Assembly (NCBI GenBank): GCA_965178125.1
Contig: OZ237741.1
Span: 1,054,001-1,118,000, forward strand
Direction: 5' to 3'
Origin: Bilabrum cf. latius
Taxonomy: Eukaryota
Length of the DNA: 64,000 nucleotides
How positions within the stretch are numbered: the first letter of the stretch is position 1; the number at the start of each line of letters is the position of its first letter. Below are positions 11,897 through 64,000 of the stretch, in pieces. The notes below the pieces were generated by a model. The model was not told the origin of the DNA. It saw nothing but the letters and a program-made list of their open reading frames with translations, and did no database searches. The position numbers were made by a program, and so were the translations under genes.

Positions 11897-12275
11897 GGAA
11901 TTCAGCTGCGCCGGGATTATTCGAGAGCAGAGTCTCTGCGAAGCTAAATAAGACGGAGCATAAGATTGAAGACCTTAGCTTCATGTTACGCAATGAAAAA
12001 TGTCAGGTGAGGGTCTATAGCTCTCACCAAGAGGCAAAATACACAGGTGGTGCAAAGTGCAAAGTGCAACTGGCGATCCAATTTAACCAATTTTAAAACG
12101 CAACCTCTCCGTCGCCGATCGCACAGAAACAAAAGCCAGTTCACTGATAGACAACGCTGCACAACGCAGAACATTGAGAATCAACAACAATGCGATACAC
12201 CGCAGTGAATCCGAGGTGTCGCGTGGACATTAAAACAACACACACCCCATCCCAGGCCAGCCGACTGGCCACTCG

Positions 12276-23447: not shown

Positions 23448-23663
23448 GACCTAGCACGCCAGCAGCACACTGCAGTGAGAATGCCGCTGGAGAGCACTGC
23501 TAGCAGGATACCGATCAAGTGAGCTCTTTTGCGAGTCGAATTTTGAGTCCCGCCCCAGATCGGGTGGAATGCTTGGTCGTATCCATATGTAGGAAAGATG
23601 AATCAAATCACATCGTTCTCATGTATCCATGACATGTATCATGCCCGGCCGCGACGATTGGGA

Positions 23664-45359: not shown

Positions 45360-48300
45360 ATGCCCTCTAAAGAAGAATTTGAAGCGCTGCTTGCCTCAAA
45401 TCCGGATGTTCTGCAACAAATGATCGCGGATGGCCTCATTGTTGAGGATGATCGCGACGAGATGGGCCCAACTGGCGCGGTGAACGACCAAGACGCCTCG
45501 GTGGACGCCCTCCCGCGGCAGGGCTCGAGCGGGATCATTCCAGGATAGCCATTGACGCTCCCAGAGGGGATGGGTAGCCCAGGAGGTCTGGCTAGAAGCG
45601 ACAGACGCCGTCCAGGCAGAGGCGGCCAAGGCGGATCCGCGGGTGGTATCCCGCAGATGCTGCGAATGCCATCAAACGACGAAGTCCACGAGACACTCGC
45701 AGATGAAGATGAGAGATGGACGCAAACTCTTAAGCGTGCTATTCCCAGCGTTGTGGTGATCCAGACGCACTCGCTCAACAACTTGGAAGGCGAATCAAGC
45801 GCAAGTCAGTCGACAGGAACCGGGTAAGCTTGCATTAAGACGCCAAGTCCTGCTGGAGGACTCCTGCTCAACTTTTCCATATTTCACGAATCCGTACCTG
45901 ATGTCGTTACTATTCGCCCATCTTGCAGGTTTGTTGTCGACTCTCGGCTGGGGCTCGTGCTGACCAATCGGCATGTGGCCTCGATCGGCCCAGCGACGCT
46001 CACCGTGACCTTTCAGTCGAACGAGGACGCCGAGGCAAGGCTCGTATACGTGGACCCCTTGCACGACTTTGCCTTTTTGCAGGCCGACCTCACCCACCTC
46101 TCCCGGGAGACGCTCCCACTCCGGGCCATCCGTCTGAACCCGGTGGGGGCGAGGGTTGGCACGGAGGTGCGGGTGATCGGCAACGATGACGCAGAGAAGC
46201 TCTCGATCCTCAGGGGAACGCTCTCCAGGGTGGACCGGGCGGCGCCCGAGTACGCCCCGTTTGGGTTTGTCGATCACCTGACGCACTACCTGCTGGCTGC
46301 CTCTGCCACGAGCGGGGGCAGCAGCGGCAGCCCGGTCCTGAACGTGTACGGCGAGGCAGTGGGTCTGAACGCGGGAGGGTCCACGAGGAGCTCGAACGCC
46401 ATGTACCTGCCGCTCTACCGCGTGGCTCGCGCCCTGGCCGTCCTGCAGCAGGGCAACCTGCCACGCAGAGGGTACGCCGGCGCTCAAGTGCACCACGTCC
46501 AGATGCACGAGTGCACCCAGCTCGGAGTGCCGCGCAAGGTGATGAAGTGGCTCACGGAGCACGGCAGGGGAAGGTATGGCATCGATCCGGGGGCGCCCGT
46601 AGGAACCAGCGACGGCGGCAGTGCGCTTGGCGGTGCTGGTGACCCGCGCGGGCACTCTCCCTGGGGATCAGCGGAACCAGGCGAGACGGGGGTCGCTGCC
46701 GACCTCGTCGCGCGCAAGCGGTCCATGGACGGTCTCAGCGCGCCCCCCGGCGTGAAAGACGCAAAGACCAGCACCGCGGTGAGCGGCATGCTCACCGTGC
46801 ACCAGCTGCTGCCGGGTGCTCCTGCCAGAGGGGATCCCTTGGGCGCTCTCAGGAACGAGCCAGGCATGCGTGCCCTGGGTCCCGACAGCGGGTGGGGGGC
46901 TCCGGAGGCGGGGATCCTCGGCGAGGTGGAGGGACAGGCCGGCAGTGGTGCTGCCGCCGCTGCCGGCGACGAGGGCGCTGGTGACGACGGGGAAGACACG
47001 GGCGGTGCAGGGTCGGGCGAGTCCGACGCCAGGCTTCGGGTGGGTGATGTCCTCCTGTCTATCAATGGGAGGCCGCTCGTAAGCTTCCTACCGCTCGAGG
47101 AGGAGTGCGACGCAGCGATGGAGCGGCTGCAGGTGCCGCCCCCCACGAGTGTTGCGCAGCCGCGCGACGAGGACTGCGACAGCGACGACCAATCCGAGGA
47201 CGAAGATGGCGATGGGCACAGCCGGCCAGATGGCAGTGGCGCCAAGGGTGAAAGCGCCGAGCCTGACGGTGCTATCGCTCGAAGCCTGAACGCGGAAGAG
47301 GCTGCTCTGGGTGGCGATCACGAAGCGACGGAAATGGGCGCATCGTGCAGCGCCGCCGGCGCCGCTGCCACCGCCTGGAGCGCCAAAGACGCCCAGCGGG
47401 CGGCAGCAGAAACCACCACCGCCGAGATGGAGAGGCTGGCTCAGCTTGCATCGCAGCGGGAGGGAGACGCCATCGGAGCTTTGCTGGACTCACTGCCAGC
47501 GTGCTGCGAAGCCGGCGAAGACGGCCCCCCGCCCGGTGTCGTGGTACTAGACGTGCTGCGAGGCACCAGCAGAGCTCTCCGGCTGGCTGTCCCAGTCATG
47601 GACGCGCACTCGTTGATTCCTCGCAGAGCGCTGCAGATCGGGGAGTGCCTCGTGCATGAGCTAAGCCTGTTCCAGAGGCTCTTTTTGCAGCTGCCCGTCG
47701 GATCGCTGTGCATCGCGGCCAACGGGACCGTCTTCCACGAGATCTCGGACGAGGTGCCCGGCACCGCCAAGTTCCTACGGAGGATCAACGGAAAGTACGT
47801 GCGCTGTCTTGGCGATGTGGCTGCAGCCCTCGCCGAGGTTGGGGACGGACAGCCGTTTCTGTACGACGTCACGCACGCGCAGGTGCCTGCCATCGAGTCG
47901 CACCCCCTGAAGAGTGTTCTGCATTGGAGCCTCGGAATCGCTAGGGTGCTCTCAAGGGACCCCGCCGCCTCCATTACGGAGGCCCATCGCGCAGCCAAGG
48001 CGTGGTCCTCGTTCCTGGATCGCATGGAGTAGATGGACCGGGGCAGTGGGCAGCTGGCCAGTCCGGGGCTTGGTGTGGGCGTGCCACATGGCGGAGTGCC
48101 AGGTGCCCCTGCGATCACGTTCCGGTCGGCCTGGACGCAGTCGCCGCTGCCAGAGCCGAGCACCGTGGGTGCAAGCGCTGGCGATGACGACGATTCCGAC
48201 TACGATGCCGTGCAACAGGCGCGTGATCGGCTGGCACGCGAGCTTCGGTCCACTCTGGCGCCGCTCACAGCCGGTGAGAGCGCGGCGGGTCACCAGGCCG

Positions 48301-51300
48301 CCATCAGTGCGGGCCTCACCGCAGCGCACGCTGGCAAGTGGGTCAAGAAGGCTGCGAGCGGGTCCATCATCAGGAGCAAGTCATCGTCCACCGCAAAAGC
48401 CGAGACCCAGCGGAAGTCGGCGCTGGACGAGCAGACGGATGCAGCCAACGCCGCCATGCGCCGCCGCCTGGCGTATGCCCGAAAGAAGGCACCCCGGAGC
48501 CTGGGCAAGGCGCTTGCAAAGTCGCTGCACCCAACCCTGCGTCCGCATGCTCTGCTCAAGAAGTCCGAGCTCCTCGACAGGGACGCCGCCCTTCGCAGCC
48601 AGGAGGCGCAGGCGAAGCTGGCTGCCAGTCGGGCGGAGGCAAAGAACGTTGGGGATGACGAGGACGAGGACGATGCGGGAGGTCCCCAGGACGATGCCGA
48701 GGAGCTTGGGGCTGAACTCGAGGCGATGCTCGAAGAGGAAGAGGAGGATGGGGAAGAAGGTAGCGGCGGTGGTGCTGGGAGCGGTGCGACCAAATCGGGT
48801 GGTGCCGGTGGCAAGTCCGGCGGCCGCAAGTCAGCTTCGTCCAAGCCGCCGCTGCCCTGGCAGGCCTCTGTCGCCCTCCGCAGCCTGGTTGTGGTGGAAA
48901 CGCGCATCGTGGCGCCAATCGAGGGCACGTCCTCCGCATCCAGCAGCGGCAGCGACCTCGCATCAATGCTTGGTATGGGCCCGAGCGGGATCGACATGGT
49001 GACCAAGGGGACGGGCATCGTCGTGTCGCGGGAGCTGGGCCTCGTGCTCGTCTCGAGGGCACTGTGCCCGGTGCTGCTGTGCTCCTGCTCCATCCGCATG
49101 CACACCACCCGCATCCCGGCGAGGCCGGTGTTTTTGTCACCCACGGCTGGGTTCGCGCTCCTTCAGTTCGATACCGGTGCTCTCCGGTGGAAAGAGCGAG
49201 GCCTGTGCCTGCCTCCCAACCCGTCGCTTCCCGCTTTGGCGAGGAGGGATGGGTCCACCACCTCGCAGCCGGGCGACGGTTTCGGCCCCGCATCTAACCG
49301 CAAGCGCCGCCACGCCGCCATAGGCAAGGCTCGGGGCGGCAGCGAGGGTGCTGAGGAGGACGGCGTCGACGATGAACTCATGCTGAGGCCGAGATGGGCT
49401 GCTCCAGACGACCAGACCGCCGCGTTTGTGGCCTTTCTCGAGGCGGATGACAAGGGCAGGGTGTCGAGGGCAGCGCCCGTCACGCTGGAAGTGTCCGGCA
49501 CGGGCGGGGTGCTGGACTCTTTGTACGAGAAGGCCGCGGTCACGGGCGTGACTGCCTCCGCTGGCCTCGTGCGATGTGCTCCCACCGCTCGGGCTTCCGC
49601 TTCCTGGACGAACGGGTCCAGCTTCGCGGCGCTGGTGAACGCGCGCGCTGAGCTTGTGGGCGTCATGTCCGCAAGCGTGGTGCCGGCGTGCATGTTTGCC
49701 GAAACGATCCGGCAGGTGTGCGAGCGCATGGTGCACGGGTCCAAGGCACCACTGAGCCTGGGGCGATTGCCAGTCACGCTGGAGAGCATCGGGTTCGGGC
49801 CGGCGGGCGAGAACTACGGGCTGCCTCAGGACATGGTGGACCGCTGCTCCAAGGACGGTGCGCGGGGGTGGTCGATCTCCCGCGTGTCGAGGGTCGAGAC
49901 ACCCCCGTCTGCAGCTGCGGCTGCCGCCTCACAGTACGCCGTGCCCAAGTCGATCGAGTCTTTGCCGCGCGTGTCTGAGGGAGACTTCATCCTCTCGCTG
50001 CTGCCAACCGAAGAGGACGAGGCCATGAGGAAGCAGCACCGAGCCGCCGTGCAGGCAGCCATCGAAGGCGCCCGCGGTGTCGGCAAGCTGGCCTGGTTGA
50101 AGACGGAGCGGTCGGCCATGACTGCCGTCCTGGCCGCCTTTGCAGCGCCATTCCAGTTCGTCTGGTCGGTCGCTGGGGTCGCTGCCCAAGACGTCCCAGC
50201 TGCCGCGCTCTACGGTGGACACGCAGTGGGTAGCGCTATCGGTTTGGCGGGTGCTTCGGTCGGGGGTAGTGCGAAGCGGTAGAGAGGGGCGCTGCAGGAG
50301 GCGCTCTGGAGGGTCGCTGCGCGCCCAGGGTCACCCCTTTAGTGGCTCTCGCCCTTCTCGTCAGCCGACAGGATGCTTGCGGGCATGTCAGCATCGTCGG
50401 ACGAGCGCATGGCGCTGCGGGCGTACATGGAGCTGCGGTGGCAAGACGAGATGCGGCTCTTCCGGGAGCACGCCGTCGGCTCGACCGGGACCCTTCCGGT
50501 GGGCATGGAAGGCGTGCGCGCCATCGTGGAACGGAGGGGCGGTCTGGCTCCTCTGCCCGGCCCGATGCGGGCGCCTGGTGCACCACCTGCCCGGGGTCCT
50601 GCCGCCGTGCTGCTGGCCGACCAGGGAGAAAGGGTGGACGAGCCGTTGAGCCTGGCGGTGCGTGCCCAGCACAGGTCTGCTCTCCGTGCCGTGGTGTGGC
50701 GCGCGGGCGAGGCTCTCGAGGTCGCGGTGCCGTGTGTGGACGTGTTCGGGCGGTCAGGGCGCGGCGCTGGCGCGCGCGAGGTGCTGTGCTGGTGCGGGAT
50801 GTACTTCCACCGCGTCGACCCTGCGCTGCTGCAGCGCGCACAGCTGCCCAAGCTGGAGCTCGACACGCCTGCGGAGCGGGAGGAGGTCAGGGCCTGGCTG
50901 GGGCTCGAGCATCCCGCCCAGGACGGGGAGGCTGCCGCGGGCCCATCAAGTCGGGAACCAACGCACGGTGTGATGGTCTCGTACGTCGACGCGGGCGCTC
51001 CCGGACAGGAGGTGCTCGCCACCGATGCGGCCAACTTCGTGTCCAGGGTGGCAGGCCGCCCCGTGCCAACGATGCGGGCGCTACGGGCCGTGGTGGCGCA
51101 GGTCGGCCACAGGCAGAGCGTGCGGATCGACACGATCAACGCATAGGACGGCACCAAAGAGGTGGGCGCACTGCGGACGGACTATTTGCTGCACCCCACA
51201 AGGTACCTCGTGCACACGGCGCCGCAGTTTGAGCTAAAGCAGGTGCTCGGCATGCCCCCGGTGGAGCTGCCGGCCCAGCTGGAGAACAACTGGGCAGAGA

Positions 51301-52274
51301 GGGTGAACGGGAGTGCACCAGTCGCGGCGCAGTCTGGCTAGCAGAGCCAGGTTGCACCCGCAGGAGCTGCGGGAAGCAAGGCTCCCGCCGGTCTCCGGGC
51401 TCGCATCGGCTCAACCGGCAGCCACGGCAGCTAGAGCGTCGGCCTTGAGAGACAGTCCAGCCTGGCGCTGTGGCAGGGAGGAGAAGGCAACTCGCAGGAG
51501 GGGGGGCTTGAAGGAGGGGCCTCCCTCGAGCTGGGTCCCGCCGCTGGTGGTGGCAGCGCGGGTGCTGGCCGTGGTGCAGCGAAGCAGGGGCAGCGTGATG
51601 ACCTGCTGGCGGGTAATCCGGACACTTTCGGTCGCACCAGCAGCAGCAGCGGCGGCGGCAGCGGCGCCAGCGGTGGGAGCAGGAAGCACCAGGCGCGTGT
51701 TGACGTGTACCTCTTCGGAGATGGGGCACCTGCCCACAGGCTGGTCGCGAGCTCAGAGGGACAGAAAGCCGCCACTAGTGGGAGCCGCGGCGGGCAGTCT
51801 GGCCCGCGTCCCTCGCCTTTGCCCAAGATCGAGAGTGAGGTGGAGCACCCAACCCCCGCAGCCTTGCTCGAGGAGCGCACAAAGGGCGCCATGGATGCAG
51901 ACGGGGCGGGCAAGGGGCCAGTGGGCTCACTGGTGTCGAACGTACAGCCCTATTTGGCGAGTGCGTGGGGCTGGACCAAGACGGGAGCCGTGGCGGCGGG
52001 CGCCATCACTTGCGTTGTGGTGGTGAGCGTGGTGTCGGCGGGGGCAGTGGTCGGTCTGGCACCAGAGGAAAGCCTGAAGCGTGCCGGTTTTATGATGTGG
52101 GGCAGCGTGAAGGATCTGATGAGGGATGCCGCCGACAAGGCCATGGCAGTGGCAGATCGGGCCAAGGAGGTAGCTGACCGAGCGAGGGCGCACGCGGACC
52201 GAGCGCGCGAGCACGCCAAATCAGTCGCCTAGCAGGCCAAGGATCGTATTTCCAAGCACACCTCTCGGTACTGA
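45360..52274 (+). CDS. NMA111: ~2269-aa Nma111/Ynm3-like HtrA-family serine protease with PDZ-like regions and a C-terminal hydrophobic segment
   Basis: Exons 45360-45823 and 45929-52274. Motifs TG|FVVD..LGLVLTNRHV, DPLHDFAF, EKLSILRGTLSRVDRAAPEY and GGSSGSPV (His/Asp/Ser triad). A second degenerate protease-like segment reads KGTGIVVSRELGLVLVSR. Eight in-frame TAGs; TGA at 52272-52274. Confidence 0.85.
45824..45928 (+). other. Spliceosomal intron (105 nt)
   Basis: GTAAGC...TCTTGCAG; its removal gives the conserved TGFVVD. Confidence 0.92.
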
Positions 52275-52522
52275 ATTGAGTTGTCATGCACAGCAGTCTC
52301 TGAACAGGGCAAGCACTCGTTCTCACAGAGGGTGGCAATTCACGGTGACTACTAGTAGCGGAACCTCATCGGAATCGCACACGATCCACGCCACAAGAAA
52401 AGCAGCGCTGCAAGCCTACTGCAACACGCCCAACGCATCATAGCAAAAGTAATCCCCTTTAAGGTGTCAAGCGCTCTTCTTTGTCCAGTCAGTAGATACT
52501 ATCCAGTTGAATTCAGCGCACC

Positions 52523-55500
52523 ATGTGAGAGTATGCTACTTCCATGCCCTTCCACAAGCGATTGGGCGACAGGGACGTCTGCAAGAATTATGGGACAGCC
52601 TCTATGTTTAATGTGCAGGGAAGGCGCCTTGCTGCGCCAATCTGGCGCGGGAAATCTGCAAGCTCTGGAGAATATACTGGACAGGGGGGCCGACCCGAAT
52701 TGCTAGGACGCTGTGAGACTTTTCATTCCGTAATTGGGTGCTTTAGCGATAAATGCTGTGCAGGAATGTTTTCCCGTCGAACTTCATCGCACAACTCGCA
52801 GAAAACTGGCTACACGCCGCTGCACCAGAGCGCAAAATTTGGCCATTCTGAGTGCTGCCGTTTGCTGCTTGATAGAGGAGCGAATATTGCATTCCGCACC
52901 GTAAGAGTTGGTTCAGACTTGTGCCCACGCCTGCCATACTTCGCAGGGATTGCTGTTCAAGAGCTGTGATATCCCGTTCTTGACCTCGCAGAAGTTGTTG
53001 TAGCTCTCTGCGCTGCATCTCGCGGCTAGTACTGGCCAAGTAGATTGCATACGCGTACTTGTATCATCAGGGGCACACACAGATGCAGCAGATGCAGTGA
53101 GATATTTTGCAGTCTAGCAGTGGTTCAAATCGCGATTCGGTGAGACAACTGCGTGATCTGTTTCATCTCTATCCGCGCAGAATGGCGATACTCCATTGCA
53201 CATCGCGTGCTGGCGGAATAAGCATGCCAGTATAGTCGAGCTAGTGCGGCTTGGTGCAAACGTATCGGCAACGAATAAGGTATGGCAACGACAGCCAAGC
53301 AATACATAAAAAGGTCGAACCTCGCCAGTTTACCAGTTTCCCGCTCTGGTTTGTTCGTTAAATCATGATCATGCTTCGTAGGAAGGCAAGACAGCACCAG
53401 AAGTAGCTGATGGTCATGGGCACGCTGAGGCTGCTGCGCTGTGCAGGGTCGATCGAAGCGCAGCAAGTGCCGCAAGTGGACCAATTCGGCGTGCACCCGC
53501 AGCAGCCACCGGCGCCGGTCCCGAGCAGCCATCTGCTCGCACCCCTCCTCCACCACGTGGTCCCCGACCAGATCATATAACGCCTGTCACGCCAGCATCA
53601 GGTCAAACGGCGTCAGCGGGGCCTCAACAGGCGAGCACCATCCGGCCGTCGCCAGCTCCGCCACTGCCACCCTCGATGCCTCGCCAGTGTGCTAGGCCTC
53701 CGCCCATTCATGCTGAACTATCTCGCGCATAGCAAGAGCTGAGAGTTCAATCTGCAAGAGTCCATGCATTGCAGGGACAGCTGAGGACGATGGATGTCGA
53801 GATGGCCGCCAAGGAGGCCCAGGCCAAGCAGCAGCTGGAGGACGCAGCGCAGCGACTGCAGGCCAAGGAGGAGGAGATGGCCGCCAAGGAGGCCCAGGCC
53901 GAGCAGCAGCTGGAGGACGCAGCGCAGAGACTGCAGGCCAAGGAGGAAGAGATGGCAGCAACACAGGGTGCATATGACACAGTGCGCCGGGCAAGCGAAT
54001 AGCTCACCGAGCAAATGATCGAGCTTGGAGACGAGAATCGGCGACTCCGCAAGTTGGTGCCAAGTACTCTGCTCGAGCGTGCGTGCGCGAAACTGTGCAA
54101 GGATTGGCAGTCTGGTCAATCACCCATGCACCCGGGTTTGGCACAACTGGAGGATGGTTCCATCACATCCACTGCAAGGGAGCCGCTCGAGATGGTGCTT
54201 GCATGGAGACATATCGTGCAACGCTTCGGAAGTCAGCTGCTTCGACAAGTAGGCACGCTTGCGCTCAAGTCGCAGGAGGTAGCCATGGGCATAGTGTCTA
54301 AACAATGCGAGCAGCACAACGAGTACATCCACGTTATTGAGTGGAAGGAGCTCCCACAAAAGGACTGGTTCGCTGGGCAGAGGGGACTGCTGCAGTACAC
54401 CGAATCGGGTGGGGAAGCTGGCGGGCGAGGCGCATCAGTGCTTGACCTCTCGTCTGTGCAGCCACCGGAAGCGCTAGAGAGGGGGCTTGCTGACGGGCGA
54501 CTAGACATCGTGTGTACTGCTGCCAATCCGCGCATCGCTGGCGCAGTGGCTAGATTTGAGCCACGGTAGCGTCCGAACGACAGAAGCCTGCTGGAGATCG
54601 AAAAGGGCCGAATCCCGCCGTTGAACATCAAGACAGGAAAGGAAGGCGCCGTGCAAGGCGTAAATGGCTTTGTATTTGCTGCAGAAATGGCAGTAGATGG
54701 GGACGATGAGGCAGCCGTGCTGCTCAATGACAAGCCACTGCAACTGGCGCTGAAGGCCATCCTCCCAATGCGCCGGGCCAACCAGTACCAGATAGACTTT
54801 ACGAAGGACCATCGTTCGGAGTGGATAGGCCCGACCCTGGCTAGCAAACACCCTAACCTTGTGCCGCTGCAATCATGGTTCATCGGTTCGTCCATGCTCA
54901 TCGTGCCATGGATAGGGGCGCCTTTTCTGGAGAGTGGCGTCGGTGTGCGACGGACCACGTGGATAGCCATGCCTCGGTATGCGGACAGTCTCAAGTCTGC
55001 GGTTGAGGCGGTACCATGCACAGGGCCCAGGGAGGCTGCACTGTGGTTGCTGTAGGCACTTGAAGCGACTCAGCACATGGTGTAGCGCGGGCTGGCTCAC
55101 AACGATGTGAAGCCAGACAACTTCTTCCTAGCAGGCGACGGCCGTCTCCTGCTAGGTGACTTCGGGTGTAGCGGTTGTCTATTCAGCGGTGGTGTGCTGG
55201 ACGGTCTGATGCAACGGTACGGCAGGACCATACGTGATGCCCGTCTGCTGGAAGATGCGCGAGACGATGGTTCAGGTCCAGCAGTAGGAGCCTCAGCTGC
55301 TGCAGACGCTGTGCCAACCTCGACTAGCCGTACAGAGGCAGAGGTATTCAGGGGATCTGGACCGGGGTCCAAGCACATCGCGTGGAGTTCGTCTGGGATG
55401 GAGACGCTCATGCCACCGGGCGGCGCACCGGTTGCGAAGGCACCCGAGCTGTTCGCCATGTCGCAAGGGACGCTACAGACCGACGCGAGGGGAGATCGAC

Positions 55501-56312
55501 TCGAAACCATGGCTCAGGCCTACGAGATGGCGGACGCGTGGGCGGCAGCGCGAACCATCTGGGAGGTTGTAAGCGGAGATGATCCAGCGAGGCAGGTCCC
55601 TGACAATTCCATGCTGTACGACAGAGTTCCTCGACTGCCACAGGCTGGGTGGGAGCTGGAAGCCATCCTGAGAGGGCTGCTGCAGTCCAGGCCCTCGAAC
55701 AGACTCCCCCCTGCGGTTGCCATACAGGCGCTCAGGGCGCTTCTGTACGGCCCCGACAATTGGCCAGAGATAGAACAAGCGGCCGTACAGCACAGGAGGC
55801 GGATGGAGTCCCGTGTACCGCCGAGCGGCCGGCCGGGTGCAGGTGCAGCACACCCGGAAGCTGGCCCAGCACCTGGTGCTGGGTCAACGCATGGCGCGTC
55901 GGTTGGGACACGCGGTGCAGTAGGTGCATCCGCTGCTGCTGCAAGTGGGGGCGCTAATGAGGCGGAATCTGCGGCTGAACTGCACTGTGAGTCGTCGTTG
56001 CTCCCTTACGTTGAGATGCAGCTGTGCGAGTGCGCGACCGCGGACAGCAAGACAGGTGTTGAGGCAGCCACTGCATCGCTCAGCTTTGGCTTGGTAGGCC
56101 CAGCAGCGCGTGTGCGGCTACCTGCAGGCAGCTGCGCGTATGAGCAGTTCTAGTGGGGCCGGCGACGGACTGTCCGGGGGGAAGCAAGCATGTGGGATCG
56201 GCAGGTCCGTAGGCAGTTGCTCACGCGTGGACGGTCCGCCTCGGAGGCGGCTGTGCAGTTAGAGGCCGACTGCGCTGCACTGGTGCGAGCAACGAGGGAG
56301 TATGCTGAATGA
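52523..56312 (+). CDS. Ankyrin-repeat, coiled-coil, PINK1-like protein kinase
   Basis: Exons ~52619-52712, 52802-52900, 52992-53096, 53181-53279 and 53382-56312. Ankyrin motifs GADPNC*D, GYTPLH, SALHLAA and GDTPLHIAC. Kinase motifs LALK, HPNLV, LL*ALEATQHMV*RGLAHNDVKPDN, DFGC, APE and YEMADAWA. TGA at 56310-56312. The start is uncertain (52523 split ATG, or 52533/52590/52611). Confidence 0.82.
53799..53958 (+). repeat. Tandem 75-bp duplication encoding coiled-coil unit EMAAKEAQA(K/E)QQLEDAAQRLQAKEE
   Basis: Two near-identical copies plus the start of a third. Confidence 0.9.
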
Positions 56313-56377
56313 GTTCACCATAGTGTATGTTTCTCCCTCTCTACCTGTCTAGAAATGCTGCGCCCATTGTTCGGTTA

Positions 56378-56486
56378 TGCGTCCCCCTCCCGTGCCCAAG
56401 CGTGGGGGGGGGGCGGGGGGATCCTACGCTTGGGCACATGGTCAATACCCCAAGCGTAGGGTGCCCAAGCGTGGGAGGGGGACGCA
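56378..56486. repeat. 109-bp intergenic element with 14-bp perfect terminal inverted repeats and four internal CCCAAGCGT motifs (MITE-like)
   Basis: TGCGTCCCCCTCCC (56378-56391) and GGGAGGGGGACGCA (56473-56486). Internal copies lie near 56392, 56423 (inverted), 56448 and 56461. No target-site duplication seen. Confidence 0.6.
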
Positions 56487-56596
56487 GTGCTTCAAGTTGA
56501 CCCTACTTAGTAAATCAGATTTCAGATTTCGCAAAAGATTCAATTTCAGAGTTCTTTGGCGTCATTGCTAATGTAGAGATCATAAACAATAGGCCA

Positions 56597-58357
56597 ATGT
56601 CGTCGTTGATCCATGTCAAGCTGCCATCGGGTGACAGCTTTGATATGAAGTTAGAGCCGGAGTGCACAGTCGGAGATGTCCAGAAAATGGCTGCCACTGC
56701 TGAGGGTCTGCCGGAATGGTTTTCACAGCATTTGCTTCTGTATAACGAACATAATGCACTGGAATTGTCTGAATGGCCAGACAGCTTCCTCCGAGAGCAT
56801 GTGTTGGGCGATCGACCTTGCGTGGCCGTCATCGCTCCAGAGTTTATTGCCAGATCAAACAAGCATTCCTTGGCCTCAGCAGTGCACGCGAGCAGTGCTA
56901 AGCATAGTGAGCGCATTCGACGCAATACTGCCAGATCCTCTTAGTACAGTTCCGAAGAGCTTGAGCTGTCAGCAAGAGCTGCCATGTAGATGGGGAATGC
57001 AATTCATGGTGCCGTTGAGAACGCCTTGGAACGCATGCATGGCGGAGTGCCGCCGGAGGACGCAGCGAAAAAGCTTGGAGCAATTATCAAAGCGCAGGCA
57101 GGCGTTCTTCACGAATTTGAACAGGGCAGCATCGCCGAGCTAAGGAGCCGCTTCGCTGCGATCGTCTCTGAGACGAATAGAGTTGATTGCGAGGCGGAGC
57201 GGCAGCTCCCACGCGAGCCTGGCGAGACTCTTAAACGCTCCCTTTCAGAATGGCACCGCCGGGAAGCATCGGTGCGGCTGTATTTGTCTGCATATGCAGC
57301 TTGGCAGCGCTGTCTGGTGGAGCTTGATGCCGCCGCGAACCCGGCTTTTTCCAGGTCGAACGAGACCGCGGGGTATGCCAGGGTTCGCGCCGGCGATTTA
57401 TTCCCCGATTTTGGCGCGCTGCTAGGATTGCGATTTGGAGGACAGTCGTCTAGTCACTCGGCTGCCGTCTGCGAGGCCGAGAACGGGGGTGTGCTAGGGA
57501 GTGCGACAGATTCGTTCGAGTCTTTCAGGTTTCAACGCGAAGAGATGCAACTCAATGGCAGCAGCAGCAGCAGCAGCAACCCCGGCTGCCGTTCCACCCT
57601 CCTAGTCCTGTCGCGCCACTTCGGGTGACGCCCGTGACGGCAGCACGTGGCCGCCCTCCACTCTCGCAGGGTGGAGCTGAGCGGCGCGGGCTGCCGCGTC
57701 ATCGTGGGAAGCTTCTGTCCCGACCTCGCCCTGGCCGCACAGTGGTCTCGGGAGGTCGGTGCCCTCGAATTCGAGCACGTCATCAGCCCAGCAACGGAAT
57801 CGATGAGTCCAGAAACCTCTACAGGTGAAGCAGACGGTTCGGGAGCTTCGGGTGCTGGTGCCACAGAGGCTGCCATTGGTGGAGCTGGAGACAGCTCTTC
57901 GCCGTCTCACTCATCCGCCTCTCCGGCAGCATTAGGTACCGCGCGGCCCACCGGAAAGGCTGGGGCCCTGTACACGTGCCTGGGTTTGCGTCGGTCCGTG
58001 GCAGGCGTGTGGCAGCCATCAGCTCTGGAGATGTACGGCGACGTAGCCGGGCGTGGGGAGGAGCTCCACTCATCACACGGCCAGGATCCGCATCAGCTCG
58101 GGGGCGATTTCCTGGTCGGGCCGGACGGCCGGCTCGTGCTTGCCTACTATTCGCAGGACTCGATGGACCGTCCCTCCGTCGATTCGCTGCTAGCGGCCGC
58201 CAGATCAGTCTGCAAGGCACTCGATGAGGACAAATCTGAGCTTGAGGTGTCGTTAGCTCCCGCAGATCGCCCTGCTGAGGTTGCTGCAGCGAGCAGCGCG
58301 TTCCGAGTGCTCCCAGTGGGTGATGAGGCTGCTTCGACTGAGGAGGTCGCGAAGTAA
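56597..58357 (+). CDS. SELENOL: 586-aa selenoprotein L-like thioredoxin-fold (AhpC/TSA-like) protein with UxxU motif and an N-terminal ubiquitin-like-looking extension
   Basis: One frame with TAG at 56942 and 56987, and TGA at 57626 and 57635 in LLVLSRHFG-U-RP-U-RQHVAAL. It continues through LY..LGL and QLGGDFLVGPDGRLVLAYYSQDSMDRPSV to TAA 58355-58357. A SECIS follows downstream. Confidence 0.9.
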
Positions 58358-58430
58358 GCATCGAAGGCGCAACACTGTACAGGAGTGGCCCGCCGCGGGG
58401 CGCGGCAGGACCACCAGTTTTGAAAAGAAT

Positions 58431-58542
58431 GCTTCAATCCTAGAAGCAGCAGCAACCCAGTGATGGACTAATGCTAAACCGGCACCAAAGTCGGCGTACT
58501 AGTCCTGAGGAATTTCAGCTGCTGGCTTCTGGATCCTGAAGC
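58431..58542 (+). promoter_or_regulatory. Eukaryotic SECIS element (type II, GUGA/GA core) in the 3' UTR of the SelL gene
   Basis: Core GTGAT 58460-58464 and TGAG 58506-58509. Helix II is GGACTA..ATGC / GCGT..TAGTCC, with unpaired AAA at 58476-58478 and an apical mini-stem CCGGC/GTCGG. Helix I is GCTTCA.ATCC.AGAAGC.AGCAGC / GCTGCT.GCTTCT.GGAT.TGAAGC. Confidence 0.9.
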
Positions 58543-58586
58543 TACAATGTGCAGCTTCAACGCTATAGTGTACAAATATTGACCTC

Positions 58587-59105
58587 TTAAGTCTAAGATG
58601 CAGCCTCATCGGGGTCATGCATCCATACATATGCGCCATTAGATGCTGTAGTTTTCACGGTCCCGTCGGAGGACGGAGGTATAAGCCCCGACGTTCTCAA
58701 AGAGTCATCCCGAGCCAGCACTTTGCCTTCTTTATCAACTCCATGGGGCATCTTTTCAGCCAGGAAGCTCATCATGCTGGATGCTCTCGAGACTCGGCTT
58801 GCAAGAGCTTGCTGGTCGCTTTCTGTTGCTTTAGCAATCCGCTTGTCCGAGTCAAGCTTCACGTTGCTCCAATACCGGTTCATAGCCTATCTATAGCACG
58901 CCTCAGCCATGTTCAATTGACCTCTGAGGAAAAATTGCTTGCCGGCGTTTGCGAACGAAGCCGCGGTGGGCCCTTGTTGGGCAGCCTCTTCGTCGAAATC
59001 GATCGATGGACACTCAGATACCCCTGGGGCTAGCACACCTTGCTATGCGAAAGAAAATGATATAATCATGCAGAGCGTGCATACAGGAAGCCAAAGTATT
59101 CGCAT
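58587..59105 (-). CDS. 172-aa secreted hypothetical protein with a single TPR-like motif
   Basis: Signal-like MRILWLPVCTLCMIISFSFA*QG and TPR-like SFANAGKQFFLRGQLNMAEACYR*AM. Three TAGs; ends TAG ACT TAA. Confidence 0.65.
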
Positions 59106-59277
59106 GGAGTGACCAAGAGGCGGCCGAAGGAATGATGAAGCCGGTGTGTCCCCGCTAGCGGCGCCGCGCACGCGGTGGCGCAGCACGAGCTGGTTGATAT
59201 GCTTTGCCAGATGGGTGTGTACGGTTGAGATGTGATAAGCAAATACTGCTACAACAGCTAAAATAGTCTCAGAGCAC

Positions 59278-62200
59278 TCAATGCTAGTGGCCGCATTCAG
59301 TGCAATGTGCAGCCCCTGATACTCGCCGCACTGTGCACTCTCCACACCTCCCCTCCGGATCAGTGGAGAACACAGCAAGGCCTTGCTGCTGCCATTTCAA
59401 TATCTACGACCGAAGCCGCTGCGACAGGCAATAACCGCACTGGGAGCAGAAAAAGACCAGGTGCGGCTGCCGCTCGTGACACGCAGGGCATTTAGTTCGC
59501 TGCGGTTGCGGCCGAGCTTGTGGTTGCGCAGGCTGTGCCGTTCCAGACACATTCCCGGTGCTCCCTGCACTGGCAGTAGACTAAGTGGCGGCTGCTCCTG
59601 CAGCAAGGCCCCCCACTGCGCCTGAAGAGTTCGGTGCCTTTGCTGCTGCTGAGCTGGCTTCAGGCATTGATGCGGCTGCAAGTGGCGCCTATGCCGGTGC
59701 CAGAGCCGGTGCTGGTGCAGATGCAGGTGCAGGTGCAGGTGCAGGTGCAGGTGCAGGTGCAGGTGCAGGTGCAGGTGCTGGTGCTGGTGCAGGTGCAGGT
59801 GCAGGTGCAGGTGCAGGTGCAGGTGCAGGTGCAGGTGCAGGTGCAGGTGCAGGTGCAGGTGCAGGTGCAGGTGCAGGTGCAGGTGCAGGTGCAGGTGCAG
59901 GTGCAGGTGCAGGTGCAGGTGCAGGTGCAGGTGCAGGTGCAGGTGCAGGTGCAGGTGCAGGTGCAGGTGCAGGTGCAGGTGCAGGTGCAGGTGCAGGTGC
60001 AGGTGCAGGTGCAGGTGCAGGTGCAGGTGCAGGTGCAGGGGCTGGAGCAGGGGCAGGGGCTGGAGCATCAGGTGTTCGTACAGCCGTCGCAAACTCAGTC
60101 CAGATGCGATCCGGGTCGTGCCATGGCTCCAGCGCCATATCATCATCGTCGCCATCTTCGACACCACCATTGCCGACATTTGCACCACCAGCTTGCTTTA
60201 CATCTGCATGAGCAGAGTTTAATGATACACCTGATTTTGGAGTGTCTGCGTCAGATGGAGCAGGCCTGCTAACGCTGGCAGCCTGGTCTGTGGCTCCAGC
60301 CCCAAGTCCGACCGATAGCTGCATGTGAACCCCAGCGGTCAGATGCCTCTTGTGCAGCCCGAAGCCCACCGTTTGCAAGGCTTTGAATGGATCCCGACCA
60401 GCCTACTGCGCGTCACGGCACTTCTTCAGTGCCTTGTGGAGGGGCACAGCTACGGGAATAGGTGTGGGCCAGAACTTCGGGGCTGCTTCGCTGAGGCTGT
60501 CCTCATTGGCGTGCTTTCGTGCCTTCAGGCCCAGCTGCCTTAGGACGACGGAGCTGAGCTGTTGCTGCCGCTGCTGCTCCTTGTCCTGCGTACTGATGCC
60601 GTTGTTCCCGTTAGGGAGCTCTAGCCCGAGATTAGACCGGTTTGAAATGACGGCGTGCACTGCGTTTGGGTCTGCCACTGGCGATGCTGCTTTCGACTCA
60701 CCACCGGCCTGCGAGGTCTGCGCAGTAGCTGTGGCACCTGACACCAGCTAGAGCCCTGCCTGCAGCAGCCGCTGTGGCAGCACCACGAAACGCTCCAGCG
60801 GGGGCGGCACCTTGACCTCAACGCGAAGCGACCACGGCCTGGCGCCGCTCGTGCCCGCGTTGGGCTGCAGCAGGCTCACGGCCGGGACTGGCAGTTGTGG
60901 TGGCTCCATAGGCGCATTGGCAGCTTCGTGCTCGCACCCGGGCTGGCCCAGCGTGTAGAGAGGGCCGTACCATGAGCTCCAGAGGCTCAGATTCTCGCTG
61001 CTATCGGGCACTTGGGCCGGCGCGCTACCTAGCTGAGATACGGCAGCAAACTGCACAGAGTACCCGACCCCCGGTGACAGGCGACTGACGCGAAGCAGGG
61101 CAAGGACATCAGCAGCATCCAATGGACCCGAATGCTCCCTTGTCCCTGACTGGTCCGAACCAGCTCCTGAGCTTGGCCCTTTGACAGGACCCGATTCCCG
61201 CGCCTAAGTACCAACGCAGGTAATTGTACCTTCAAGTCCCGACGATGCCTTCATCGCGCTCAGTGCGAGGCTACAGCTGCGGCAGGCGTCAGCCAGCGTT
61301 GGAGTCCGAATGGTGGTTGAACCGATCCGAGCCGGTTCCCCCGCACGCCTGTGACGGCCCCACTCGACTACCACACCCGCAGGCAGCAAGAACAGATCGG
61401 CATCCCCGTTTCTAGCAGAAGGCGTCGATACGGCTGGCTCGGACTCGGATGCTCCCACCTCCTCTGAAGCATTACCGCTGTCGTCTTGGCGAAAGTTACC
61501 CTCCCGCATCTCATTTGATAGTTTCTGAAGGGCAGCCGATACTAGGTCTTCGGACAGACACGGTAGCAGCGGAAGGCCAATGGCCAGCTCGCGAACTCCC
61601 CTCCCGACCGCAACTAAACCCTATGCCTGGCTCGTCTGTCTCATCTTTGGCACACGAATCCTACCGTACCGCTCCGGCAGCCACCTTGAATGCCCCACAG
61701 CGTTGCAGAGACGAGCGGTCACTACCAGGCCTGGAGTGGTGGCTGGAACCCGCTCTAGCCAGCATTCGACGACGGACCCGTCCGGTTCCTGTTCAGCGCT
61801 GCCTATATCCATTTCTAGTTCGCTCCATTCGGAGCCAAATGTTGGCTGAGGTTCAGAGTCTCCATTGGGCTTCGTGTCGTCGGCGGAGCCACCGCTGCCA
61901 TGCGCCTCCCGCGCCTCCCAGCCGTCCACTTCTTCCTGCTGAGCAGCGCGCCAGCGCACCTCCATGCTGCGTAGTGGTGCGGCATGGTGCGCCCTGTCTC
62001 GATGAGGCAGCTGGATGGTAACCGGCCAGCTAGTAAAACCGCCGGATGCTGCCCCATCGCCGGCGCTGGGGCGGGTCCGAAGCTTGGAATGAAGCGCAAG
62101 CGATCGACGCGCGGCATCCCGAGGCACGGCCAGGGCACCGTCCTGGCCAATTACGCCCGCGAGTCCGAGCGCCAGCAGGTCAGTCGCATTCATTTGCGTC

Positions 62201-64000
62201 GAAAACTCGTGCAGCTGGGCAGTTGCAAGAGCGTCGCTGCCATCAGAGAGGCCAGTAGCCGCAAAGAGACCAATTTTGGTTGGCGATGCGGTCGGAGGGC
62301 CGAGGGTGTAGCACGGAGCACTCCATGGTCCCGCGGGCCCGGCACCCACCTCATTGGATAGGCGGGCGCGCACAGCGACGAGGAGGTCGGAAGGGATCCC
62401 AGTGATACCGGCCGTTGTTGTGCTCCTGTCCGATACCGAGGCAGCGGTGGCATCAGCGGGTGGAAGCTCGACGTGGTGAGGATTCGGGAGGGCAGAGGGC
62501 AGCTCGGGGCCGGTGTGCCCGATCGGTACCTTGCAGGTCCCCATGGGCTCCTCTCCAAGCACTCCCTGAGGCACGCGCCCCTTTCCAAAGAGCGATGGTG
62601 GGGCGGCCTGCCACTCCAGCAGAACGTGCGTGGCCGCGCCGGGCAGCACGGACTAGAACGACTCCCTGGCAGCAGCAGGGTGCGGGTGAACTTCGCCACT
62701 CTTTGATGCTTCGAGCCTAGCCCGCAATGCACTCGAGGAAGAAGACAGAAGGTCTGGCGCCCTGGATGGAGCAGCCGTGGGCCGCCCCAGCGTAGCCACG
62801 CAATCGCTGCATGGCGTTTTGGGTCCCTCCCCGGCGGCGTTGACGGTGGCCACAGCAAACTCGTACTTCGTCTCAGGGCGGAGATCACCCACGACTGCTT
62901 GATTTTCAGCGCCTTGTGACACCCCTTCGCCGTGATTGACCCCAGTGTGCATGGGGCCACTCCACTCGGGCTCTTTGCCCAATCCAGCACCGTCCCGGCC
63001 GGCTGCAGCAGCTGCACTGTTGCCTCCATCTTCGCTCGGCTTCACGGGATTGTCCCGCGCCGACTCGCCAGTTGCCCTTACACCATCGATTGCCGGCCTC
63101 CAGTAGAGCATGTACCCAGTGGGTGCGTCGTCATCATCCCCGACCTAGGCAACCCCCCAGTTGACGGTGATGCTGCTGCTGCTGCGGCTGGCGGCAACCG
63201 GGCTAGACGCCGGTGGTAGAGTCGGGGGTCCGAGCGTACGGATGCTCTCGCTCCAAGGGCCCGGAGGTCCCCGCCCGACCGTGCTTATTTCAGACAGTCT
63301 GACCTGAATGTCAGTGCCCGAAGGGAGGTGCTCTAGTCGGCCTGCCAGCGCCTGCGTGATTCCAGCAGCGGCTTGAACGCACGTATCCAAGGAAATGTCA
63401 AGTGTCCCACCCCTGCGAAACCCACCTGGCGTGCCGCCGCCATCTCCGTCCTCTCTTTCCGCTGCTTTCCATTCAAGCTGAAACGCAACGGCCGGCGATT
63501 CGATGGCGGAGGGCTTCCTCGCTGGCCACCCAACCACGAGGGCACAGCGCTCTCGATGCACCGAGACAGGCCGACCGCCCGGGTGCAGGGGCGGACCAAG
63601 CGTGCGGAAAACAGTGCTCCATTCGCCCGGCACGCCCCTGCCTGCCCCCGACTCGCCCAAAACACGCACAATGTACGCACGGCCGGGGGTCAGCCCCGCC
63701 AGCTTGGTCGCAACGGCGCTCGAGGACACCGTCACCGCTCCGCACGGGGGATCGGGGTCCTCCGTGCTGACTCCAGACCCCACCTCGGGGCGGTCTCCCC
63801 GGGCCACAAAGGCCGCCATGGCAGTCTCGGCAGCCAGGAGTCGGTCGGCTGGCACGGCATCCCCGTCTTGGATTCCTGCTGCAGCAGCATCACTAGCACC
63901 AGCACCAGCACCAGCACCAGCACGAGCGACAGGGGAAGACCCTCGATCGTCCATGCCTGCACCAGACGCGGGCGCCTGGCCTCCTTCAGACTATGACAAG
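59278..64000 (-). CDS. 3' part of a large fibronectin type III repeat protein with an (Ala-Pro)n stalk and C-terminal double zinc ribbon
   Basis: FN3 motifs GLTPGRAYIVRVLGESGAGRG, DLRPETKYEFAVATVNAAGEG and RLSPGVGYSVQFAAV. The C-terminus has CPAC...CSQCG and CGEC...CTECG. One frame with only TAG interruptions to TGA 59278; the 5' end lies outside the window. Confidence 0.82.
59708..60066. repeat. (GCAGGT)n hexamer microsatellite, ~50+ units, encoding (Ala-Pro)n on the minus strand
   Basis: Near-perfect run at 59723-60039 with degenerate flanks; in frame with the FN3 gene. Confidence 0.97.

Follow-up and report, generated by a model that had tools for sequence, protein, structure and literature searches.

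Reading frame and stop codons of the locus

The locus described here raises the question of how a single reading frame that contains TAG twice and TGA twice, and that closes with TAA, can be read into one protein. The first-pass annotation had proposed a selenoprotein L (SelL) gene in which TAG specifies Gln, TGA specifies Sec at two positions and TAA terminates, accompanied by a SECIS element. Translation of 56597-58357 on the forward strand of the window (the whole stretch of DNA analysed, 64,000 nucleotides), with TAG as Q and TGA as U, gave 586 residues followed by TAA. The two TAGs, the TGA pair within RHFG-U-RP-U-RQHV and the TAA end that had been noted at first pass were all present at their codons, as follows.

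56597..58357, + strand: proposed CDS, 586 residues plus TAA stop
56942..56944, + strand: TAG in frame at codon 116, taken as Gln, within the linker (aa 86-131)
56987..56989, + strand: TAG in frame at codon 131, taken as Gln, immediately 5' of ATG 56990 (Met132)
57626..57637, + strand: UxxU redox motif TGA-CGC-CCG-TGA (Sec344, Sec347), at the N-terminus of helix 1
58355..58357, + strand: TAA terminator; the frame-0 coding score past it is -0.192

The TGA codons are numbers 344 (57626-57628) and 347 (57635-57637), and their context is LSRHFG-U-RP-U-RQHVAAL. In each of the four CDS segments frame 0 had the best coding score, a positive one, and past the TAA its score became negative. Taken as a whole, the locus is likely to be an unspliced SelL-type selenoprotein gene, whose product is probably a selenoprotein that resembles peroxiredoxins and carries a pair of adjacent selenocysteines. 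A single mRNA probably contains each of the three standard stop codons and puts each to a different use. The gene joins an existing family, of SelL type, and its code is a rare, UAG-only variant. As had been stated at first pass, TGA is the dominant terminator in the window: nine other gene models end in TGA, and TAA serves as terminator once, in the SelL-like gene. The idea that TAA was chosen for this gene as the only unambiguous stop rests on one gene.

The CDS is embedded in a colinear unit that is covered by contigs from several data sets:

56560..59122, + strand: transcript-like unit, unspliced and colinear, with leader, CDS and a 3' UTR of ~660-765 nt

Contigs of runs X5 (56560-59015), X6 (56564-59122) and X7 (56565-57002 and 56977-59119) match the window with 0 differences and no gaps, include the hairpin described below and display neither splicing nor editing. 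Their RNA nature is a guess, X5 having been flagged as probably DNA, and the contig ends are a weak hint. A DNA run (X1) extends beyond both ends of the unit, and X5-X7 give no cover at, for example, 56479-56559 and 59123-59316.

TAG as a sense codon

Throughout the window, TAG is read as sense. With the standard code the longest ORF in the window was 821 aa, and reading through TAG opened ORFs of 6,594, 2,703, 2,148, 1,903 and 1,573 aa. Across the 18,858 codons of the 11 gene models of the window, TAG occurs in frame 122 times and TAA 0 times; when TAA was also read as sense, hardly any gain in ORF length resulted. The 6,594-aa ORF gave no match to a Pfam family in either half. The genome region has a GC content of 55-70% and is intron-poor.

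The residue inserted at TAG is most likely Gln, judging from sequence comparison. TAG is interleaved with CAG and CAA in poly-Q runs (e.g. HYxHQxxQQQ), and at two conserved sites 5 of the 6 solved homologues have Gln opposite TAG, which is a small sample. One of these sites is in a GlcNAc 2-epimerase gene, where three of the four solved homologues have a conserved Q and the fourth has E; the other is in a UPF0317/D-Glu-cyclase gene, where both solved proteins have Q. Two further TAGs in the epimerase gene fall at variable positions, and those of a phosphatase gene lie outside its aligned part and are uninformative on the meaning of TAG. The single E, the variability of the other TAG sites and the fact that no tRNA, tRNA-Sec included, was found within the window leave some room for a sense codon of another identity (e.g. 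Glu, Leu or Tyr), which the agreement at the two conserved sites and the mixing with CAG/CAA make very unlikely. The earlier reading of TAG as a sense codon is upheld by the window-wide read-through ORFs, and its assignment to Gln is supported by the solved homologues.

An origin from a bacterium or phage using code 15 was considered and rejected on the basis of a GT-AG intron in the neighbouring giant gene, eukaryotic domain content and the SECIS-like element in the 3' UTR.

A thioredoxin-fold domain with a predicted UxxU in place of CxxC

The part of the protein that carries the TGA pair was characterized by profile searches, structure prediction and structural comparison.

57593..58252, + strand: thioredoxin-fold AhpC-TSA_2 / PRXL2-type domain, aa 333-552 (HMMER, AF2, Foldseek)
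57803..57937, + strand: low-complexity Ser/Gly/Ala insert, aa 403-447, in frame; homologues lack it (alignment A1)

HMMER searches against 1.84 billion representatives returned 338 matches at E <= 0.001, the best at 2.5e-27, and the codons after the second TGA encode sequence with 44-53% identity to relatives. Pfam PF13911 (AhpC-TSA_2) scored 18 bits, below its cut-off of 27. The AF2 model of the domain, made from a 64-row alignment, reached pLDDT 79.1 and pTM 0.70; in it a strand (14-19) and a helix (26-37) lie around residues 25 and 28 of P0002, the two U positions of UxxU. Foldseek placed human prostamide/prostaglandin F synthase first (9usa, E 2.5e-6), with peroxiredoxins also among the top matches. 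For the table-11 ORF that begins past the second TGA, the nearest cluster in the ESM atlas was a "C9orf21 protein" with PF13911 (score 0.92). A protein search with P0002 gave nine bacterial-type matches, named just "peroxiredoxin"; a search with residues 300-586 found no homologue in the length band searched, and a PDB sequence search with the domain found no relevant match.

When homologues were aligned, the two TGAs fell opposite the CxxC of bacterial proteins and the WxxW of longer ones. In 14 of 15 related metagenome loci, which belong to several lineages, TGA-NNN-NNN-TGA itself is present (LRHFG-TGA-x-x-TGA), the remaining locus having UxxC; the placement of the TGAs on the redox cysteines, as put forward at first pass, agrees with both observations. 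Most of the top protein matches begin just past the motif, as would be expected of gene calls cut at TGA. The WxxW homologues, at 29-38% identity to the window protein (alignments A1 and A4), are most simply, and probably, gene calls in which TGA was taken as Trp. In a quick tree of 52 unnamed rows, hand-picked from more than 150 matches, the window protein grouped with 20 truncated rows and 7 of 8 WxxW rows and with 0 CxxC rows (SH-aLRT 95), within a sister group of protist-like sequences (SH-aLRT 90).

The Ser/Gly/Ala insert has pLDDT below 50 in the model (P0002 residues 84-128). An intron spanning it with GT..AG borders, either 57825-57929 or 57825-57935 (105 or 111 nt), was tried and rejected: the colinear contigs retain this stretch, and other genes in the window carry similar inserts.

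A SECIS-like hairpin downstream of the TAA

Downstream of the CDS lies one hairpin.

58431..58543, + strand: SECIS-like element, form 2 (fold, descriptor and Rfam SECIS_1 alignment)

Helix I pairs 58437-58457 with 58518-58535 and is followed by a 5' quartet, G58460-UGA(58461-58463)-U, which faces a 3' quartet, U58506-GA(58507-58508)-G, and by helix II; beyond these come an unpaired AAA (58476-58478) and a 5-bp mini-stem. The fold of 58425-58545 has a free energy of -47.2 kcal/mol against a mean of -30.6 for shuffled sequences (z = -4.55), and 0 of 200 shuffles folded as well. The distance of about 75 nt from the stop given at first pass was accurate, the outermost helix starting at 58431, 73 nt past the TAA.

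A SECIS descriptor, written post hoc with the hairpin already in view, matched a single site across the two strands of the whole window (128 kb), namely this hairpin at 58431-58543. In 200 dinucleotide shuffles it matched 0.475 sites per 128 kb on average, with at least one site in 82 of them, so that ~0.002 chance sites are expected per 660-nt 3' UTR on the correct strand. The core departs from the textbook form, with GUGA instead of AUGA and UGAG on the 3' side. Searches with Rfam SECIS_1 reported nothing at the gathering score, and nothing at E <= 10 when 501 nt were searched; the hairpin alone aligned to the model over its full length (model 1-64, 58449-58522) at 13.5 bits (E 3.5), against a threshold of 35. 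The SECIS proposed at first pass is supported by the anatomy of the hairpin and by its cover by the transcript-like contigs, and it falls short of the Rfam threshold.

Among the 15 related loci, SECIS-like elements were found 3' of the gene in five (L002, L004, L012, L013 and L015), with GUGA in L002 and L015, and that of L012 scored 38.4 bits with Rfam SECIS_1, above the threshold. The search scripts found none in the other 10 loci, several of whose contigs end soon after the stop codon. MAFFT gave no sensible alignment of the five hairpins.

Selenocysteine, termination or readthrough at the TGAs

These data bear on how the two TGAs are read. Termination is what TGA normally brings about in the window, and Rfam calls no SECIS; the locus would then be a decayed or truncated copy, with a product of 343 aa that lacks the redox domain and a downstream frame that is a relic. 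This is highly improbable, given that the 239 codons past the second TGA stay open and score higher as coding sequence (0.182) than any other part of the gene, that they are 44-53% identical to relatives, that 14 of 15 loci from several lineages retain the TGA pair, and that a hairpin with SECIS anatomy follows.

UGA-C is a leaky context, and C follows both UGAs compared with one of the nine terminator TGAs; some library homologues, in addition, have W at both positions. These features would suit readthrough in which a near-cognate or suppressor tRNA inserts Cys or Trp at the two UGAs, with no Sec involved. The W residues, however, are most simply TGA called as Trp, the other genes of the window, ~18,300 codons in all, contain no further in-frame TGA (a count set by how ORFs are constructed), and SECIS-like elements are present both in the window and in relatives, one of them above the Rfam threshold. 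We consider such readthrough scarcely credible, and infer that selenocysteine is inserted at UGA 344 and 347.

The N-terminus and the start codon

The meaning of the two TAGs in this gene depends on where translation starts, and three features near the 5' end are relevant.

56571..56585, + strand: mini upstream ORF ATG-TAG-AGA-TCA-TAA, in another frame; four codons if TAG is sense
56597..56851, + strand: possible divergent ubiquitin-like (beta-grasp) domain, lineage-specific, aa 1-85
56972..57415, + strand: helical region towards the N-terminus, aa 126-273, with homology to the N-terminal extension seen in protist relatives

Within the transcript-like unit, no AUG earlier than ATG 56597 opens a long ORF, and translation probably starts at ATG 56597. 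A start at Met132 (ATG 56990) instead would turn the 430-nt stretch with both TAGs into a 5' leader or upstream ORF, leaving the gene with two meanings for its stop codons, not three. Met132 is about where the proteins of relatives begin, and the 212 residues that it would leave before UxxU are nearer to the 134-188 of relatives (285 in L012) than the 343 counted from Met1. The second TAG, moreover, immediately precedes ATG 56990, and the GC content of the region encoding aa 1-131 (51%) matches that of the flanking UTRs (52%), the remaining CDS being at 59-65%. No Pfam family, ubiquitin included, matched aa 1-131, and no similarity was seen to the long N-terminus of L012, the sole relative N-terminus that was compared directly.

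Several results speak against a start at Met132. A leader of this kind would contain 11 upstream ATGs, and because TAG is no stop here, four of these would share the frame of the CDS. The coding score of aa 1-85 (0.145) is at the in-frame mean (0.157 +/- 0.069), and that of the linker, aa 86-131, is 0.067, with frame 0 the best and a value above the 99th percentile of off-frame windows. In hhalign, a profile of eight relatives matched the window protein with a probability of 94.6% (E 6.4e-8) from residue 126 onwards, upstream of Met132 and spanning codon 131; pairwise BLASTP comparisons of the helical region with L005 and L008 gave no significant match. The N-terminus also shows a weak resemblance to ubiquitin in sequence and in the pattern of its secondary structure. 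All 31 matches of aa 1-85 in the PDB (phmmer) were to ubiquitin or its variants, at ~4.6 bits per repeat, each weak, and against single-ubiquitin chains E was ~1.2-1.9. Single-sequence AF2 gave beta-beta-alpha-beta-beta for this segment (pLDDT 46-65), and the ESM atlas placed a ubiquitin-like cluster at rank 9 (score 0.85). The whole-protein AF2 model was poor, with a pLDDT of 38.5.

On balance a start at Met132 appears rather unlikely, and AUG 56597 is preferred. The first-pass proposal of a SelL gene with TAG as Gln, two TGAs as Sec and a SECIS element held in the parts that could be tested; its wording of three meanings in one gene hinges on the start at 56597, since both TAGs lie in the lineage-specific extension that precedes Met132.

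Proposed decoding and implications

With the start at AUG 56597, decoding may be pictured as follows. The mRNA would span ~56560 to ~59015-59122, with initiation probably at AUG 56597. UAG 116 and UAG 131 would be read as glutamine, as everywhere in the genome, a reading for which a tRNA-Gln(CUA) and an eRF1 blind to UAG would be needed. At UGA 344 and 347, codons that otherwise are the usual terminator, the form-2 SECIS (core 58461/58507, ~830 nt 3') would recruit Sec-specific factors for the insertion of two selenocysteines, and UAA 587 would end translation. The predicted product has a possible ubiquitin-like N-terminus, a helical region and a thioredoxin-fold PRXL2/AhpC-TSA_2 domain in which UxxU replaces CxxC; as a putative oxidoreductase it would switch between a diselenide form and a form with two selenols.

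A further idea, which we regard as unlikely, is that the reassignment of UAG remodelled the gene and constrains the ends of selenoprotein mRNAs. Both TAGs would descend from stops, of which one would have closed an upstream ubiquitin-like ORF and the other would have preceded an ancestral start at Met132. The change of UAG to Gln would have merged the upstream ORF and SelL into one protein, a gene fusion brought about by the altered code. If this idea is right, selenoprotein mRNAs would have to end in UAA, since UAG is sense and any UGA ahead of a SECIS could be recoded, and TAA would be enriched among selenoprotein genes genome-wide.

The locus is a natural and compact case for study. A stretch of 1.8 kb holds UAG as a probable sense codon, UGA as an apparent Sec codon twice within four codons and UAA as the stop, and UGA meanwhile terminates neighbouring genes. 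Such an organism would need a rare kind of eRF1, able to tell UAG from UAA, and a Sec system working beside termination at UGA. Whether UGA stops are avoided by the selenoprotein genes of such a genome is a testable rule. For annotation, standard gene callers would break the gene into four pieces, and most relatives in protein libraries are truncated at the TGA pair.

Comparison with known systems

SelL is described as a Prx-like protein with two Sec residues two residues apart and a single SECIS element (PMC3316567, PMC2398784, PMC2397514), and the use of UxxU as the SelL hallmark in the first-pass annotation fits that description. The window protein shares with the SelL of fish, invertebrates and marine bacteria the Prx-like thioredoxin fold, UxxU for CxxC and a single SECIS (a candidate here), and occurrence in aquatic organisms is common to both. 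It groups with WxxW proteins, in which TGA was probably read as Trp, and differs by its low-complexity insert and its extra, possibly ubiquitin-like, N-terminal extension. Orthology to SelL would rest on unnamed relatives, since no sequence in the comparison is named SelL.

PRXL2/SelU proteins (PRXL2B; C9orf21 = PRXL2C) have the same fold, the same Pfam family and the redox motif in the same place. PRXL2B in 9usa, whose name as a C44S/C47S mutant marks it as a CxxC protein, is 16% identical to the window protein in the structural alignment. PRXL2 proteins generally have CxxC, and their Sec forms (SelU) have one Sec; PRXL2A-C correspond to SelU1-3. As to the hairpin, GUGA-type SECIS elements were reportedly described in apicomplexans (Toxoplasma/Neospora) by Novoselov et al. 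in 2007; they share the G for A before the core UGA with the window, L002 and L015, and no relationship is implied.

The principle of the code is not new, UAR as Gln and UGA as Sec or stop being already combined in ciliates. In Tetrahymena and other ciliates with UAA and UAG as Gln, UGA is described as both Sec and stop, so that all 64 codons are translatable (PMC7409322). Likewise here, a stop codon reassigned to Gln and UGA as Sec and stop would coexist in one organism, but UAG alone is reassigned and UAA, never in frame in 18,858 codons, probably stays a stop. A Tetrahymena selenoprotein mRNA must end in UGA, whereas for one in this genome UAA would be available as an end, being neither sense nor open to recoding as Sec. 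In Amoebophrya, all three stops have been reassigned and selT, selM and selO are kept together with tRNA-Sec (PMC6394959). The genome studied here is GC-rich (55-70%) and intron-poor, unlike those of ciliates. In the literature on variant codes that was searched, no GC-rich, intron-poor lineage with a UAG=Gln code was found, which does not imply that there is none. UAG-only codes include NCBI table 15, that of Iotanema spirale (UAG as Gln) and those of some phyllopharyngean ciliates. Reassignments in which UAG and UAA differ in meaning, with UAG as Gln, are treated in two further reports (PMC5304391, PMC11687900), and the same split between UAG as Gln and UAA is seen in this window.

The SelL-like reading frame

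When TAG and TGA are read through, translation from the ATG at 56597 continues to a TAA at 58355–58357, with the TGA codons falling inside ...LSRHFG-U-RP-U-RQHVAAL....

56597–58357 (+), proposed SelL-like coding sequence, 586 residues; codons 116 and 131 are TAG, codons 344 and 347 TGA

The first-pass annotation had described two TAGs, a TGA pair at RHFG-U-RP-U-RQHV and a TAA end; the coordinates match the raw sequence and the description is accurate. The feature is real and was correctly read. C is the next base after each of the two Sec UGAs and after one of nine terminator TGAs, a sample too small to weigh.

Codon usage in the window

With all three stop codons read conventionally, no stop-to-stop frame in the 64-kb window exceeds 821 aa. 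Reading TAG as sense opened frames of 6,594, 2,703, 2,148, 1,903, 1,573, and 1,000 aa; reading TAA as sense changed little (longest frame 827 aa), and with TGA as sense the scan of the window gave no frames comparable to those opened by TAG. Across 11 gene models (18,858 codons), TAG occurs in frame 122 times and TAA not at all, alongside 526 CAG and 189 CAA codons, and poly-Q runs contain TAG. Two TAGs could be placed at well-conserved positions: in the epimerase segment CPQxLEWDMKLWWPH, TAG (x) aligns with Q in three of four solved homologues and with E in the remaining one, and within an 11-residue stretch of the D-Glu cyclase it aligns with Q in both solved homologues. The remaining TAGs examined lie at variable or unaligned positions. 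The earlier assignment of TAG to Gln is upheld by these counts and alignments, as is that of UGA as the dominant terminator, since TGA ends nine other gene models. For this window, there is good support for TAG as Gln and for TGA as the usual stop; TAA does not appear to serve as sense, and as a stop it is seen only in the SelL-like gene.

Homologues and predicted fold of the SelL-like protein

Residues 320–586 were searched with HMMER against 1.84 billion representatives (E ≤ 0.001), giving 338 relatives, the top match having an E value of 2.5e-27 and 53% identity. A motif regex applied to the best 150 of the 338 matches found CxxC in 16, all bacterial-type proteins of ~180 aa, WxxW in 8 (probably TGA called as Trp), and no motif in 116. 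The closest motif-less matches among these 150 begin immediately 3′ of the motif, as commonly happens when gene callers stop at an in-frame TGA. In the alignment, both window TGAs sit exactly on the CxxC/WxxW columns, as anticipated from their proposed position at a redox motif. Among 15 related metagenome or metatranscriptome loci (L001–L015), LRHFG-TGA-NNN-NNN-TGA is kept in 14 and the remaining one has TGA-NNN-NNN-TGC, these loci not being independent (near-identical translations within L001/L003/L009, L005–L007, L010/L011, and L014/L015).

A quick tree of 52 hand-picked rows grouped the window protein with 20 truncated rows, seven of the eight WxxW rows and no CxxC row (SH-aLRT 95); it lay inside a subgroup of 16 (SH-aLRT 90), beside a WxxW subgroup. 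AlphaFold with a 64-row alignment returned a confident thioredoxin fold (pLDDT 79.1, 157 residues ≥ 90), in which the motif follows strand 1 and precedes the start of helix 1; ~45 residues of a Ser/Gly/Ala insert are disordered. Foldseek ranked human prostamide/prostaglandin F synthase (a PRXL2 protein with CxxC) first and peroxiredoxins next, and the closest atlas cluster was "C9orf21" (PF13911); Pfam PF13911 itself scored 18 bits on the window protein, below the cut-off of 27.

SECIS-like hairpin and transcript evidence

58431–58543 (+), SECIS-like hairpin in the 3′ UTR: long helix I, internal loop, G-UGA-U (58460–58464), helix II of ~10 pairs, unpaired AAA 11 nt past the quartet, 5-bp mini-stem with a 6-nt loop (form 2), and U-GA-G (58506–58509)

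Folding of 58425–58545 is far more stable than that of shuffles (z = −4.55). A custom descriptor ([AG]UGA, helix II, unpaired AA at 8–13 nt, 3′ GA, and a helix I ≥ 6 bp long) matched this hairpin alone in 128 kb; shuffled windows gave a mean of 0.475 matches. Rfam SECIS_1 was silent on the hairpin at its gathering score, as it was when 501 nt were searched at E ≤ 10. When the hairpin alone was compared with Rfam, SECIS_1 ranked top of 4,227 families and aligned end-to-end in the expected register, at 13.5 bits against a threshold of 35 (E 3.5). The hairpin had been called a canonical SECIS; it has SECIS anatomy, but its Rfam score is below threshold. Hairpins of like design follow L002, L004, L012, L013, and L015, with GUGA in L002 and L015. 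Rfam calls only that of L012 (38.4 bits), so SECIS_1 misses most elements of this clade. A scripted search of the other 10 loci found no SECIS-like element, several of these contigs ending near the stop.

Three runs from two studies, their RNA nature being a guess, supplied contigs that agree with the window at every position, TAG and TGA codons included; whole contigs span 56560–59015, 56564–59122, and 56565–57002 plus 56977–59119. The only joints within the gene are repeat-driven, at a CAG run near 57557–57596. A DNA run extends beyond both ends of the unit, and in one of the three runs (X5) neighbouring stretches are at a different depth. There is moderate support that the putative transcript is unspliced and includes the hairpin; the coincident contig ends are a weak hint, and X5 was flagged as probably DNA.

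Translation start

56571–56585 (+), mini upstream ORF ATG-TAG-AGA-TCA-TAA in the SelL leader

The ATG at 56597 is the first with a long ORF, preceded only by this mini ORF, which is a bare ATG-stop in the standard code and a TAA-ended ORF of four codons with TAG as Gln. Initiation could instead occur at Met132 (ATG 56990), which directly follows the second TAG and lies about where the relatives' proteins begin, these carrying 134–188 residues ahead of the motif (285 in L012); in GC content, the first 131 codons also resemble the flanking UTRs, and their product has neither a Pfam match nor similarity to the L012 N terminus. Against this, a start at 56990 leaves 11 upstream AUGs, and the profile match to relatives (probability 94.6%) starts from residue 126, upstream of Met132. 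Coding scores are in-frame-like, with frame 0 best, for aa 1–85 (0.145) and 86–131 (0.067), the in-frame mean being 0.157 (sd 0.069) and the off-frame 99th percentile −0.031. Residues 5–40 align with ubiquitin residues 3–38 (all 31 PDB matches are ubiquitins, each weak alone), and the single-sequence model of the N terminus has a beta-beta-alpha-beta-beta pattern. We regard 56597 as the probable start.

A candidate third selenocysteine in relatives

In seven of the 15 related loci (L005–L008, L010–L012), TGA directly follows a conserved Cys-x-x (ECKT-TGA, ECRA-TGA, ECKE-TGA, ECVE-TGA), with a TAA or TAG 1–16 codons beyond; the pattern is also noted at the ends of proteins P0006, P0012, P0015, P0017, P0021, and P0024. 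From these patterns, a C-terminal CxxU is a possible third selenocysteine in these relatives, and it is absent from the window protein. The relatives use TAG as a stop. Apparent terminators across the 15 loci are TAG (5), TAA (3), and TGA (7); all seven TGAs, each after the conserved Cys-x-x, may themselves be Sec.

Gene content and layout

1–44401 (−), 45828–58357 (+), and 59278–64000 (−), same-strand gene blocks
10100–11974 (−), fusion of an MGMT DNA-binding domain and D-glutamate cyclase (UPF0317), the cyclase split by a poly-Ser/Gly insert of ~110 aa
22401–23447 (+), ORF of 349 codons with 5 TAG, in a 1.1-kb gap separating two minus-strand genes
23664–44401 (−), giant gene of >6,800 aa with 33 in-frame TAG, main ORF 6,594 aa
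56378–56486, G-rich palindromic element of 109 nt, between the kinase gene stop and the SelL transcript start

The long TAG-open frames, which include the MGMT fusion, carry eukaryotic domains: protein kinases, dual-specificity phosphatase, GlcNAc 2-epimerase, trypsin-like protease, and fibronectin type III. Neither half of the 6,594-aa ORF had a Pfam match. A 137-nt GT–AG intron (24620–24484, −), the sole intron seen in the window, joins this frame to a final exon, giving …NGKVCLSLLGTW…, which by eye appears to continue a ubiquitin-conjugating-enzyme-like domain as in BIRC6/BRUCE-type proteins. GC content is 55–70%, and the domains and intron point to a GC-rich, intron-poor eukaryote as the source.

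The strand switches are divergent at ~44.4–45.8 kb, where cumulative GC skew reverses, and convergent at ~58.4–59.3 kb; within blocks, six of eight spacers are short (~70–430 nt) and two are ~1.0–1.1 kb. Low-complexity inserts recur among the enzymes (MGMT/cyclase fusion, epimerase, and SelL). One plus-strand frame of 22525–23660 scores weakly positive for coding (0.079). The palindromic element, single-copy within the window, has perfect 14-nt terminal inverted repeats (TGCGTCCCCCTCCC / GGGAGGGGGACGCA) with inner palindromes nested. Short high-depth contigs and joints that skip 56381–56510 in sequencing runs suggest a MITE-like element that recurs, or is polymorphic, in the genome.

Proposed decoding and stop-codon choice

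A single SECIS would serve two UGAs, which lie 833 and 824 nt 5′ of its core; UAG would be decoded as Gln, and translation would end at a UAA 103 nt 5′ of that core. Under this code, UAG is sense and UGA can be recoded through a SECIS, whereas UAA is exempt from both. The earlier idea of TAA as the only unambiguous stop is attractive on that ground, though it draws on a single gene.

Comparison with known systems

In the cited passages, SelL is Prx-like and occurs in aquatic organisms; its two Sec, spaced two residues apart, form a diselenide and are served by a single SECIS (PMC3316567, PMC2398784, PMC2397514). The window protein, compared here with unnamed relatives rather than named SelL sequences, shares this fold and motif, and its SECIS agrees in anatomy, though not in Rfam score. 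UAG-only reassignments are rare (cf. PMC5304391, PMC11687900); a literature search found no GC-rich eukaryote combining one with Sec, a result that does not establish the code as undescribed. Reassigned stop codons alongside Sec are already known: by the cited accounts, Tetrahymena reads UAR as Gln and uses UGA as its only stop and as Sec (PMC7409322), and in Amoebophrya reassigned stop codons coexist with Sec (PMC6394959). The window protein is a new member of a known SelL-type family, in an unusual code.
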